Positions 16,923 through 58,530 of a DNA stretch of 64,000 nt are shown here, in pieces. Within the stretch, counting starts at the first letter, position 1; each line of letters begins with the position of its first letter. The stretch lies in NCBI GenBank assembly GCA_964457245.1, contig CAYWET010000008.1:30270-94269 (forward strand). Reading direction: 5' to 3'. The translations under genes were made by a program, and so were the position numbers. The notes under the pieces were generated by a model, which made no database searches, was not told the origin of the DNA, and was given only the letters and a program-made list of their open reading frames with translations. Origin of the DNA: an uncultured Chryseobacterium sp. (GTDB taxonomy: Bacteria > Bacteroidota > Bacteroidia > UBA10329).

Positions 16923-16994
16923 GGCCTCGTAGTTCAATGGATAGAATAGAAGTTTCCTAAACTTTTGATCTAGGTTCGATTCCTAGCGAGGCTA
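16923..16994 (+). tRNA. tRNA-Arg (anticodon CCT), CCA not encoded
   Basis: Cloverleaf: acceptor GGCCTCG/CGAGGCT, D arm GTTC/GAAT, anticodon arm GAAGT-TTCCTAA-ACTTT, T arm CTAGG-TTCGATT-CCTAG; 72 nt. Confidence 0.95.
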
Positions 16995-18507
16995 CTAAAT
17001 AGGAAACATCCAATTTTTCGTGGATTTTCCTTTTCTCAAAACTTTTGGAACCCCTGTCAATACTGAGACACAGAGCAAGGGCTTCGTTCAATTTTTTGGT
17101 TCGACATTGATTTCCGTCAAATTCAAGCATTTCCGGAAAAATCGAACTAAGCAAGTGAATTTTGGTTTTTCCCGAAGCTTTGGAAAATGTGGTTCCTAAG
17201 TGAGATAGCATTGAAACGGCCTTACGTATGACCCTTTCTCTATCTATAGAATTACCATTAAGCGCTTTCAGGTCAGCCTCTGCCTGTGATCGAATTTTCT
17301 CAAACCTAGTCTTCATTTGAATGAAATCATCTGATGAAACGATTCCATCTGCAAGATTATCCTGTAAACGCTCTATGCGGTTCTTTTGCTTTTCAATGAG
17401 GTGATTTAACTCGTCAGCTTTTTTCTTTCTTATGAGGCCAGAACCTTTTAACAAGAGGTTTATCAATTCTTCCTGAATGATCTTTGCATCTTTGGTGAAC
17501 TGGATGCTATCAAGGATTTCGGAAATGGCTTGGTTTACCTTTTCTGAACGATAACGCTCTTCGCCACAATGGTTGCAGTGATAGTAAGGGTATCTGATAC
17601 TTGCGCGGCCTCGTGACCGACTTCCTGTCATTTTACTTCCACACTTGGAACATTTCAATATTCCTCGTAACGCAAGCAATTCATCGGAGATTTTAGGGCT
17701 AATCCTCTTTTTTGATGAATTCTGATTCAGTTGGTCTTGTACTTGATAGAATAGTTGCTCACTTACGATGCCCTCGTGCTGCGCTTCAATGAGTTGATAA
17801 GGTTCGTCCTCAAATGCAGGGATTTCAATCTTCCCCATATACATGGGGTTTCTCAAAATCAGTGAGAGTTGACTTTTGCTTATCGGCGTGCCTCTTTCTT
17901 TCAGGTCAATTACTATTTGTGACTGGGGAATTCCTAATGCAACTTGCTCATAGGCATGTTTGATGGCCACGGAATACTTGTCAGGAATTATGATTGGGCG
18001 GTTGTTCTCATCACGCGAATTCTTGTACCCGTATGGAGCATTACGACTCCATCGGCCGGCTTTCAATGCTGCCCGCATTCCACCTTTAATTTTGATAGAC
18101 CTCCGGTCGTTATCCACTTCTGGAATTGCTAAGAAAACCGCAAGCATAACCTTGTTTTCCGGAATGGAGAAGTCGATAGGCTGTTCAATTGACTGTGCTT
18201 GAACACCTAGCTTCCTAAGCTCATCAATCATCCTGTAAGCATCGTAGGCATTTCGTGAGAATCGGTCCCATGAAGTGAACAGAAGCAAGTCTACCTCACC
18301 TTTGTTCTTATTCAGCCAGCAGAGAAACTCTTTGAAGGCTGGTCTATCGAAATTCTTCGCAGAATGATCTTCTCGGAATGAGTATACCATTTCGACATCA
18401 TTTCTACTACAATAGTTTTCTAACGAATCCGATTGAACGTCAAGGCTGTAACCCCTTGCCTGTTCATCACTAGATACCCTGCTCATAAGTGCTGCCCGCT
18501 TTCTCAT
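16957..18507 (-). CDS. Large serine recombinase (integrase)
   Basis: RVSSDEQ catalytic Ser, SAKNFDRP, DRFSRN, recombinase domain PYGY/NPMYMG, Zn ribbon CSKC/CNHC and a coiled coil. The last residues are read from the tRNA antisense strand. Confidence 0.95.
   Translation of the reverse strand: MRKRAALMSRVSSDEQARGYSLDVQSDSLENYCSRNDVEMVYSFREDHSAKNFDRPAFKEFLCWLNKNKGEVDLLLFTSWDRFSRNAYDAYRMIDELRKLGVQAQSIEQPIDFSIPENKVMLAVFLAIPEVDNDRRSIKIKGGMRAALKAGRWSRNAPYGYKNSRDENNRPIIIPDKYSVAIKHAYEQVALGIPQSQIVIDLKERGTPISKSQLSLILRNPMYMGKIEIPAFEDEPYQLIEAQHEGIVSEQLFYQVQDQLNQNSSKKRISPKISDELLALRGILKCSKCGSKMTGSRSRGRASIRYPYYHCNHCGEERYRSEKVNQAISEILDSIQFTKDAKIIQEELINLLLKGSGLIRKKKADELNHLIEKQKNRIERLQDNLADGIVSSDDFIQMKTRFEKIRSQAEADLKALNGNSIDRERVIRKAVSMLSHLGTTFSKASGKTKIHLLSSIFPEMLEFDGNQCRTKKLNEALALCLSIDRGSKSFEKRKIHEKLDVSYLVASLGIEPRSKV
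16973..16998 (+). other. Left att junction (attB-derived arm plus core CTACTAA at 16992-16998)
   Basis: GGTTCGA-N12-CTACTAA, formed by the tRNA T arm and 3' end. Confidence 0.7.
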
Positions 18508-18631
18508 TTACTTCTTCGATAATAATTCTGGCCAGCTCCTTGTTGAATGAGAGCATGACCTCTAGTTCCTCATCCGAATACTTTTCTTTTTTAGGGTCTA
18601 CAAGTTTTCTGCATTGCTTTAATGTCAGCAT
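18470..18631 (-). CDS. Small 53-aa protein overlapping the recombinase start (not in ORF track)
   Basis: Manual translation: MLTLKQCRKLVDPKKEKYSDEELEVMLSFNKELARIIIEEVNEKAGSTYEQGI. ATG at 18631, TAG at 18470-18472. Confidence 0.7.
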   Translation of the reverse strand: MLTLKQCRKLVDPKKEKYSDEELEVMLSFNKELARIIIEEVNEKAGSTYEQGI

Positions 18632-18709
18632 TGTTCGATAAGCTGCATCGACCTCTGTTCGTCCAGTAGGTAGATACCTGTATCAATAGGTCTGATGTGT
18701 TCAGTACCA

Positions 18710-56870: not shown

Positions 56871-57324
56871 GTTGCGGGCATTCACGCTGATAGAGGTACT
56901 CATTACCTTGGTTATTACGGGTATTGCCGTGGTGATGGTCGGTTATGCATTCAGAACGGTAAAGTCTACGTCCAATAAGGTGAGTGCGGGGATCAGCGGT
57001 GTTGAGTCATGTTATTTTCTGATGTCAGATGTTGAACGCCTTTTCAGTTCAGAAGCAGGTCCAATCTTCAGATTCAATGAGGTGAAATTCACTCATACGT
57101 CATATGATTTTGGTGTTGAATACACGGTTCGGAAGCAGAACGGGAGAATTGACACGTTTCCAAACCATTTGGTGCAACCGGTACACGGGTCGACCATTGA
57201 TAAACGATTTAAACAACCTGTAGATTCGTTGGCATTCATTCACCAAGAGGCTGAATTCAAATTGAAGAAGCAAGGTTCGTTAGCTGAGTATGTGAACAAT
57301 AGTATTGAGCATGGCGAAGATTGA
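56860..57324 (+). CDS. Minor pseudopilin (GspJ/PilW-like)
   Basis: RA|FTLIEVLITLVITGI. Confidence 0.8.
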   Translation: MKNRLRAFTLIEVLITLVITGIAVVMVGYAFRTVKSTSNKVSAGISGVESCYFLMSDVERLFSSEAGPIFRFNEVKFTHTSYDFGVEYTVRKQNGRIDTFPNHLVQPVHGSTIDKRFKQPVDSLAFIHQEAEFKLKKQGSLAEYVNNSIEHGED

Positions 57325-58447
57325 CCTGAGAACTAATTCGACCAAAAAGGAAGCTGCACGGTCATGGACCGAGCAGTTGTCTGAACTCATGTCACGGGAC
57401 TTTCAGCTCTCAGGTAGTTCTCTAAGCAATAGCATCAAAGAACAACTTTACTCTGATCTGCACCTGCTTATTGTGTCCGGTCTGGATATCCGTTCCTCAT
57501 TGGATCTGATATTCAATGAATCAAAAGAGGGTAAGGTCAAGAAGGTGCTGGGCGAGGTCAGAGAAGCGGTTTACGCTGGACGTTCGTTAGGAGATGTCCT
57601 TTCTGAAACAGAAGGATTTACAGAATATGAAGTACAGTCTGTAAGAATAGGAGAGGAAACTGGGGCTATGGCGGAAATCTTCGGGAACCTATCGGATGAT
57701 TTTAGAGAACGGATAAAGATGCGAAGGGAACTGGTTACCGCATTCAGTTATCCACTTATGGTTACTGGAATTGCGGTTCTTGCAGTTGGTTTCATGATGA
57801 CCTTCGTAGTTCCACTTTTCAGTGATTTGTTTCAAAGGTTAGGTCAAGATCTTCCGTGGTTGACCCAGCAAGTAATCGCTTTTTCGGAGTTTGTTTCCTC
57901 ATACTGGTGGGTTTTGGTTCTGATTATCGCACTGTCGGTAGTTTTCTGGACTTATGGTCGACAACAGCTGAATATTCGATTGAAAACGGACCTATTACTT
58001 CTGAAAATTCCGCTTTTGGGTTCAATTCTCAAGGAGTCGGTTATGGCGCGATTTACAGGTTCGATGTCCTTTATGCTGAAATCTCAAGTGAGCCTTTTAC
58101 GGGCTCTTAAATTGTCAGCCGAGATGACGGAGTTTTCGCTTCTCAAAAGGGCGGCTGTTGAAATTGAGGAAGGTCTGATAAAGGGAGAGAATCTGACAAC
58201 TCTAATCTCTAAGAATCCTTTGTTTGACAATCGTTTTACTGCCATGGTCAAAGTTGGAGAAGAAGTCAATCAATTGGAACGCGTTTTCAGTCATCTGTCA
58301 GAGCAGTACAGTGAACAGATTCAACGCAGAACCAAAACTCTAAATACGTTTCTGGAGCCCCTGATGATTGGCTTCTTGGGAATTGTGGTCGGGACTATCT
58401 TGATTGCGATGTATTTGCCTTTGTTTGAGATGAACTCAGCTTTTTAA
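57311..58447 (+). CDS. gspF: T2SS/T4P inner-membrane platform protein GspF/PilC
   Basis: Two GspF domains: SGL, IGEETG, AFSYP, VGEE, FLEP and AMYLPLF. Confidence 0.93.
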   Translation: MAKIDLRTNSTKKEAARSWTEQLSELMSRDFQLSGSSLSNSIKEQLYSDLHLLIVSGLDIRSSLDLIFNESKEGKVKKVLGEVREAVYAGRSLGDVLSETEGFTEYEVQSVRIGEETGAMAEIFGNLSDDFRERIKMRRELVTAFSYPLMVTGIAVLAVGFMMTFVVPLFSDLFQRLGQDLPWLTQQVIAFSEFVSSYWWVLVLIIALSVVFWTYGRQQLNIRLKTDLLLLKIPLLGSILKESVMARFTGSMSFMLKSQVSLLRALKLSAEMTEFSLLKRAAVEIEEGLIKGENLTTLISKNPLFDNRFTAMVKVGEEVNQLERVFSHLSEQYSEQIQRRTKTLNTFLEPLMIGFLGIVVGTILIAMYLPLFEMNSAF

Positions 58448-58499
58448 GTGCTTGGATTGGGAACGGACTTCAAAATAAGTTCTAAATCTTTCCAAATTT

Positions 58500-58530
58500 G
58501 GTTCGACCTCTGTCCACCCGGCTCTACTAA
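58500..58530 (+). other. Right att junction (attP-derived arm plus core CTACTAA at 58524-58530)
   Basis: GGTTCGA-N17-CTACTAA. The minus strand reads LVEPGGQRSNQIWKDLELILKSVPNPST* (stop 58444-58446), in frame with the recombinase LV codons at the left core. Confidence 0.72.

Follow-up and report, generated by a model that had tools for sequence, protein, structure and literature searches.

The placement of a mobile element's attachment (att) site inside the gene of its own integrase is an established concept, published for DsiB of the Dehalococcoides ssrA islands, for the streptococcal rumA ICEs (integrative conjugative elements) and for the Myxococcus phage Mx8. Here we describe an element of this kind in a 64,000-nucleotide stretch of contig CAYWET010000008.1 from an uncultured Chryseobacterium sp. 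(assembly GCA_964457245.1; the whole stretch is called the window below). The element is a 41.5-kb mobile island at the 3′ end of a tRNA-Arg gene, with an integrase gene that extends through the island's att site. The integrated enzyme ends in a short peptide read from the antisense strand of the tRNA gene, and the enzyme of the excised circle would end in a different tail encoded at the far end of the island. An att site within the integrase gene had been claimed in a preliminary description of the same DNA. It is borne out by a stop codon inside the tRNA-Arg gene, by an open frame at the far end and by the recurrence of the layout across the integrase family.

DsiB resembles the present system in being a CcrB-like large serine recombinase encoded by attL, with a 3′ end that always overlaps att and a stop in the RNA gene or in the next island, and in the occurrence of tandem arrays; its authors proposed that full function is reached only on the circle or behind a neighbouring island (McMurdie et al. 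2011, PMC3146451). DsiB islands use ssrA only and carry DsiA, ParB and Mom, whereas here the target is tRNA-Arg and the family uses many tRNAs as well as transfer-messenger RNA (tmRNA). A DsiA-like small serine recombinase, ParB and Mom gave no Pfam match among the 30 open reading frames (ORFs) scanned. The accessible part of the DsiB report defines no conserved circle-state tail and no recombination directionality factor (RDF), whereas here a 53-amino-acid (aa) partner gene overlaps the integrase gene. In the rumA ICEs the att site also lies inside a serine integrase gene, the excised C terminus differs and a functional difference was proposed, but these elements are conjugative and target a protein gene, the 3′ end of which is exchanged (Ambroset et al. 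2016, PMC4701971). Pfam and NCBIfam gave no match to a relaxase, coupling protein or VirB4 in the island ORFs covered; several of these ORFs matched nothing, and overlapping or short ORFs were excluded from the scan. Phage Mx8 has attP inside int, and integration swaps in a short C terminus and changes activity (PMC4701971, PMC6070905); its enzyme is a tyrosine recombinase in which 112 residues are replaced by 13, against 26 by 11 here. The suicidal integrases of the SSV family likewise contain the recombination site within the ORF, but they are of the tyrosine family and integration splits the gene (PMC7253208), whereas 505 of 531 residues are kept in one frame here. The canonical integrase and RDF pairs (LI/A118, SPbeta SprA/SprB, phiC31 and Bxb1) share the domain order, the fold and an outer motif shifted by 5 bp (PMC3783163, PMC11722253), together with a small helical partner at the base of DBD2 and the coiled coil, a position that is predicted here. 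No att-in-gene layout is described for them in the accessible text of these sources; here there is a state-dependent extension and a partner gene that overlaps the integrase start. The island works like the DsiB, rumA and Mx8 systems, but the features tested place it outside the DsiB, Mx8 and SSV groups. No description of the family, its tail or its partner was found in the literature searched, supplementary datasets of which may include such islands, and the words tRNA, tmRNA, C-terminus and Bacteroid do not occur in the accessible text of Durrant et al. (PMC10083194).

The integrase has the features of a canonical large serine recombinase (Table 1). The resolvase domain was matched at E 2e-24 (PF00239), with the R-V-S catalytic motif (R10, V11, S12) invariant in 113 sequences. 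PF07508 and PF13408 were also matched, C286 being invariant and C289, C311 and C314 conserved at 90% or above. A structure model with a mean predicted local distance difference test (pLDDT) score of 82 places the coiled-coil helices at residues 357-417, and the best Foldseek matches are serine integrase-DNA complexes (9dxd, 9iu2 and 4kis; E 1e-20). In this model residues 504-516 score below 50 and are disordered. None of the canonical parts (catalytic, DNA-binding and coiled-coil) reaches beyond about residue 470, and either form has them intact, so that the tail swap leaves the enzyme whole and alters only an extension. Integrated enzymes of the family carry tails of 11-76 residues. MAFFT aligned the tails to an internal integrase segment, EFDG..CRT..INE.L.L (residues 458-483), a hint of internal duplication. 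No relative of the integrase was matched in viral contigs, and a single further resolvase-like match in the genome lies on contig C12.

Table 1. Features of the island and of its att region, in positions of the window.
Feature	Position	Strand	Remarks
tRNA-Arg(CCT)	16923-16995	+	ARAGORN and sequence; insertion target; antisense strand forms the B arm and the integrated-state tail
T-loop GTTCGA in B arm	16974-16979	+	16 nt from the conserved Val codon
Left 7-bp core (attL)	16992-16998	+	
Hairpin and T run in P′ arm, on the strand opposite the final integrase codons	17001-17034	+	fold -10.4 kcal/mol, without shuffle control
Large serine recombinase, 516 aa integrated	16957-18507	-	Pfam Resolvase, Recombinase, Zn ribbon; residues 506-516 from tRNA antisense
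53-aa gene, candidate RDF	18470-18631	-	overlaps integrase start by 38 nt
317-aa gene, weak MerR-type helix-turn-helix	18710-19663	-	Pfam E 7.5e-4, below cut-off; conserved, upstream of the 53-aa gene
Type IX secretion system-type SprB/CHU_C proteins, OmpH, 2400-aa orphan, 3347-aa RHS-core protein, TPM protein	21000-46659	+	Pfam/NCBIfam
Type II secretion system (T2SS)/type IV pilus-like cluster: pilins, peptidase, GspE, secretin, GspM-like, GspF	47379-58447	+	
P arm encoding the 27-residue circle tail (VEPxGxxSN, then predicted amphipathic helix) and stop	58444-58527	-	
GTTCGA in P arm	58501-58506	+	21 nt from the Val codon, an outward shift of 5 bp relative to the tRNA arm
Right 7-bp core (attR)	58524-58530	+	

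The tRNA-Arg gene is the sole tRNA gene that ARAGORN called in the window, and it is unbroken in both the integrated and the excised state. Val505 of the integrase is invariant in 113/113 aligned homologs, and crossover likely takes place within its codon, at AC 16994-16995 (the discriminator base and the next). Excision at the two cores is predicted to release a circle of 41,532 bp carrying an integrase ORF of 531 aa, in place of the 516 aa of the integrated gene, and an 11-residue tRNA-derived tail would thereby be exchanged for one of 26 residues. At the far end the frame is open for 27 codons (V to T), and its stop at 58444-58446 overlaps the gspF stop at 58445-58447; these lengths and positions agree with those given in the preliminary description. 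The hairpin in the P′ arm is likely a replacement terminator for the tRNA, and related junction copies of it fold at about -21 kcal/mol. The GTTCGA copies in the B and P arms are likely the attB-type and attP-type zinc-domain motifs, respectively. Across the family, CGAA, presumably the motif bound by the zinc domain, lies at an offset of 22 from the Val codon in the P arms and in one tailed metagenome relative (L189), and at an offset of 17 in the tRNA arms (59/65 scorable relatives). In large serine integrases the zinc-domain motif is shifted by 5 bp between attB and attP (PMC3783163). The short core and the 5-bp shift of the outer motif are what serine integrases display, with a putative role of the motif in binding.

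The 7-bp core by itself is no better than chance as a marker of the island's end. Four copies lie on the plus strand of the window (16992, 51637, 58524 and 58777) and three on the minus strand, and fusions through the other two downstream plus-strand copies are also open (527 and 618 aa). Position 58524 was chosen because of the uniqueness of a protein pattern, the rank of a tail hidden Markov model (HMM) and one contig that ends at the core. The degenerate pattern V-E-P-x-G-x-x-S-N, with free codon choice, has a single match in the 4.0-Mb genome, at 58501-58527. In 24 family genomes the same pattern gave 26 matches, spread over 15 of the 24, with 9 for the reversed control; TCGAA is present in 18 of the 26, and the other eight were chance-like in ordinary frames on inspection. 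An HMM built without the window's tail placed the 58524 site at the top of the genome's six frames with 32.9 bits, the next site scoring 11.1, its training sequences having been gathered in part with a profile that did include that tail. The claim of the preliminary description that the island ends here held. A 234-nt metagenome contig (run X1, 99+% alike, depth 2) aligns exactly to 58524-58753, leaving four island-side letters unaligned; this is the pattern expected from an empty site, weakly indicated by a single low-depth contig from the one metagenome run that contained any of the stretch (share 0.14). At such cover the lack of island pieces in X1 is uninformative, and the run gives no indication of habitat. 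A strict junction pattern occurs in three stretches of genome contigs and in no viral contig, and a 25-nt right-boundary pattern matched no stretch in metagenome contigs. Synteny could not fix the boundary, since the 171-aa gene beyond attR was not found in 21/21 other genomes of the genus.

By sequence, the att-in-gene layout is common to the whole integrase family. Of the 120 homologs listed, 118 were scorable; a tRNA- or tmRNA-derived peptide of the V-x-x-x-G-x-E-P type terminates 105 of them, the circle tail terminates none, and 13 end otherwise. A metagenome survey of the best 80 of 417 loci left 65 scorable relatives, with a tRNA- or tmRNA-derived end in 59, another end in five and the circle tail in L189, a full-length natural integrase cut by the contig end. 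The ends of 32 of the 59 overlap a tRNA or tmRNA called by ARAGORN, and 27 have the same type of peptide without a call. The confirmed targets comprise 16 tmRNA genes, the rest being tRNAs for Ala, Arg, Glu, Cys, Val, Phe and Met. A profile joining the integrase end to the tail retrieved 55 proteins among 1.84 billion (34 natural fusions, 10 of tRNA type and 11 unclassified). All 34 fusions are short (46-150 aa), being relics or contig-edge pieces. Searches for full-length tailed proteins yielded one irrelevant match and, among 23 full-length matches, no tailed one, an outcome weakened by clustering and candidate limits. In another genome (G004) the same island head stands at the same tRNA, and a second junction 38.5 kb further on joins a P arm in frame with the decayed 3′ piece of an integrase. 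Conserved arms and natural fusions thus substantiate the SN..DL tail that the preliminary description had expected in homologs.

Codon usage and reading frame separate two parts of this tail. Twenty distinct P arms were compared, 17 from the degenerate-pattern matches and three from locus L089. Serine is encoded by TCG in 20/20 arms, which were selected on that motif, the S-N pair is TCG-AAC or TCG-AAT in all 20, and glycine is GGA in 19/20; no convincing arm with a synonymous serine codon was found among the 26 degenerate-pattern matches. The first nine tail codons look constrained as att DNA. Past SN, DNA identity drops to a median of 36% across arms. The frame nevertheless stays open for at least 10 codons in 18/20 arms, against 5/20 and 7/20 for the other frames, and 0/20,000 shuffles reach 18, a figure whose significance is exaggerated by the kinship of the sequences. 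The spacing from SN to the aromatic residue differs among arms by a whole codon. In the 34 fusions, position 11 is F, L or W in 30, position 14 is D in 25 and position 15 is L or I in 25. This pattern argues that the helix after SN is under protein-level selection, and it refines the preliminary description: SN is probably fixed by DNA recognition, with selection on the protein only in the helix that follows. A hydrophobic-pattern test was positive in 19/20 arms against a shuffle mean of 1.2, with a motif set post hoc and so of little weight. Immediately beyond 17/20 arms stands a hairpin at least as strong as -11 kcal/mol, which is a terminator of the post-tRNA type or a relic of an integrase 3′ end. 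A class-wide pattern search in 301 genomes, mostly at chance level, returned 30 loci; one new arm taken further (G201) has tail and terminator, and genome G105 contributes to none of the conclusions.

A second component, overlooked in the preliminary description, is the overlapping 53-aa gene, whose product is predicted to bind the integrase. Neither Pfam nor NCBIfam gave a match for it. A profile of it matched 74/75 loci with upstream DNA, 16 of which were in its training set, and 0/75 on the opposite strand; overlap of the gene with the integrase start is thus near-universal in the family. Modelled with integrase residues 270-505, the 53-aa protein gave a complex score of 0.76, the best of three controls reaching 0.01; agreement between runs covers at least 89% of contacts, and the partner pLDDT is 79 or more. 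The mark for this score was reached by 116/157 solved and 2/215 mismatched pairs, counts that are only rough for the alignments used here. The predicted interface (340-353, 426-455 and 474-480) is the base of the zinc domain and coiled coil (DBD2), where the helix of the SPbeta RDF packs (PMC11722253), and in the model it takes in helix 475-483, the start of the extension that bears the swapped tail. The 53-aa protein is thus predicted to bind the integrase where RDFs bind, and the overlap of the two genes suggests their co-expression. Upstream, the 317-aa gene has homologs in G004, G007 and G023. A 39-codon ORF between the 317-aa and 53-aa genes (18591-18710, minus strand) is similar in nine family loci with variable ends, and could represent either a peptide or a conserved element of the DNA. 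A 143-aa ORF (19736-20167, plus strand) has no Pfam match and shows weak DNA similarity at the same position in G004 and G007; it is possibly part of the core module.

The tail may control directionality or stability. We favour the reading that it is a state switch which commits the circle's enzyme to integration, working with the 53-aa RDF candidate, and we hold it at a little short of even confidence. If the 53-aa protein is an RDF made together with the integrase, an incoming circle would express both and would need some means to integrate anyway, which the tail would supply. Packed on or beside the groove of the RDF, the circle-only tail would weaken the RDF's effect and permit integration; once integrated, the tail-less enzyme would respond to the RDF by excising the island. 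Blocking of RDF sites is a role already proposed for C-terminal extensions (10.1101/2024.06.11.598349). In the fold predicted for L189 the tail forms a helix at residues 515-521 with a pLDDT of 58-65, compared with 40-46 for the tRNA tail of the window's integrase, and the linker is below 50. The idea that the tail mimics the partner helix was rejected, no similarity in sequence being detectable (hhalign E 0.15 and 0.069; 4/37 control windows scored higher). More tentatively still, the whole of this widespread Bacteroidota family of tRNA- and tmRNA-targeting integrases might set its own direction through editing of its own gene, with the RDF always produced from the integrase operon and the circle-only helical tail shutting its groove.

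Several observations weigh against the state switch. Residues 341-360 are no better ordered with the tail than without it, and the L189 model does not give the place where the tail would pack. Tail lengths and ends vary (21-46 residues), and the kinship of the counted arms lessens the force of the shuffle test. The attR of the window is followed by a weak hairpin (-4.1 kcal/mol), unlike the strong one after most P arms. A Bacteroidota -7 promoter motif is below chance in the window, with none upstream of the integrase. The circle junction and empty site envisaged in the preliminary description came out only in part: one contig aligned from exactly 58524, and neither a circle junction nor a complete empty site was recovered from the three metagenome runs mapped to 5000-24000 and 56500-60500.

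An alternative, unlikely in our view but the strongest of those weighed, is that the tail sets overall activity or folding instead of direction. Full activity would then belong to the circle enzyme, and damping of the integrated form would stabilise the island. The conservation of the tail helix fits this, as do the lower activity described for the integrated form of Mx8 (PMC4701971) and the proposal that DsiB is fully functional on the circle only (PMC3146451). So does the rarity of full-length tailed genes (0/118, 0/23 and 1/65) beside common short tailed pieces (34), as expected if a hyperactive chromosomal copy is counter-selected. Against it stands the integrity, in either form, of all catalytic, DNA-binding and coiled-coil parts, which precede residue 470. 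Short relics with tRNA-type tails occur too (10/55, and two in this genome), and the rarity may reflect non-autonomous elements and clustering.

We consider it improbable that the tail is neutral, nine codons of it being att DNA and the rest a tolerated run to the stop, with the 53-aa RDF alone setting direction through its expression. The invariant TCG-AAC/AAT and near-invariant GGA codons, the motif lying 5 bp further out than in the tRNA, a credible RDF candidate and the tolerance of the integrated enzyme for tails of widely differing length all suit such an account. It is opposed by the open frame and hydrophobic periodicity that persist past the att footprint despite the low DNA identity there, and by the retention of D14 and L15 in distant fusions.

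The tail of the mycobacteriophage BPs repressor acts as a degradation signal. That one of the two integrase tails does the same and controls half-life is very improbable: both are C-terminal and exposed, and the integrated one is disordered in the model, but the 105 integrated and 34 circle tails share no common terminal residues and none ends in AA. Least probable of all is a wrong right boundary, in which 58524 matches by chance or belongs to an older element and the integrase never gains this tail, for although the core is only 7 bp with four copies, no empty site or circle was recovered, the neighbouring 171-aa gene was not found in the other genomes of the genus and arrays with multiple P arms occur, the genome has no strong P arm besides that at 58524, whose orientation and frame fit, and the alignment of one contig ends precisely at the core.

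Remnants and arrays of the att arms were seen elsewhere. In this genome, at a tRNA-Phe (C2:82431 onward) and a tRNA-Arg ACG (C36:37932 onward), only the P′ hairpin arm is present, with the last 15-20 integrase codons broken and no integrase; these might be relics or non-autonomous elements that the present enzyme could mobilise in trans. Two degenerate P arms lie 5.2 kb apart on contig C17 (8815 and 14048), each with a terminator-like hairpin, and with no integrase nearby. Runs of three to four P arms with cargo between them and no integrase genes were observed in G007 (C35:51349, 59823 and 90185), in L150 (277-2932) and in L089. The arms of such runs are sometimes only 100 bp apart, in cassette-like arrays at tRNA and tmRNA sites. 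In L205 (G023 C136, 7972-8226) an inverted P arm is accompanied by the 3′ relic of an integrase, and an intact integrase is found 3 kb away.

The cargo of the island combines type IX secretion system-type surface proteins, a 2400-aa orphan and a 3347-aa RHS-core protein with the T2SS/type IV pilus-like cluster (Table 1). Sorting domains of the type IX system, together with the names of homologs, point to a Bacteroidota host. The same T2SS/pilus-like cluster was found in genome G002, where a P arm lies about 200 bp past gspF, which suggests that the integrase family moves the cluster in two species. In the G004 island (L036-L037), where the integrase at the same tRNA is 81% identical, the cargo is entirely different and by eye resembles restriction-modification and other defence genes.

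To our knowledge, the direction of large serine integrases is well studied, and in the known cases it is set by the supply of a separate factor. The present family permits a direct test of a second layer of control, with the two isoforms assayed with and without the partner. The DsiB and rumA papers suggested state-dependent function without, in their accessible parts, testing both forms (PMC3146451, PMC4701971). Nearly all database entries are the integrated, tail-less form (105 of the 118 scorable homologs, none being tailed), and the mining of such entries for genome-engineering tools in Bacteroidota would assay the isoform that probably does not integrate in nature. The conserved P arm also provides a marker for the ends of islands whose direct repeat is only 2-7 bp. 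If the proposed switch is true, a single att region of 50 bp would serve at once as recombination site, coding sequence and tRNA terminator.

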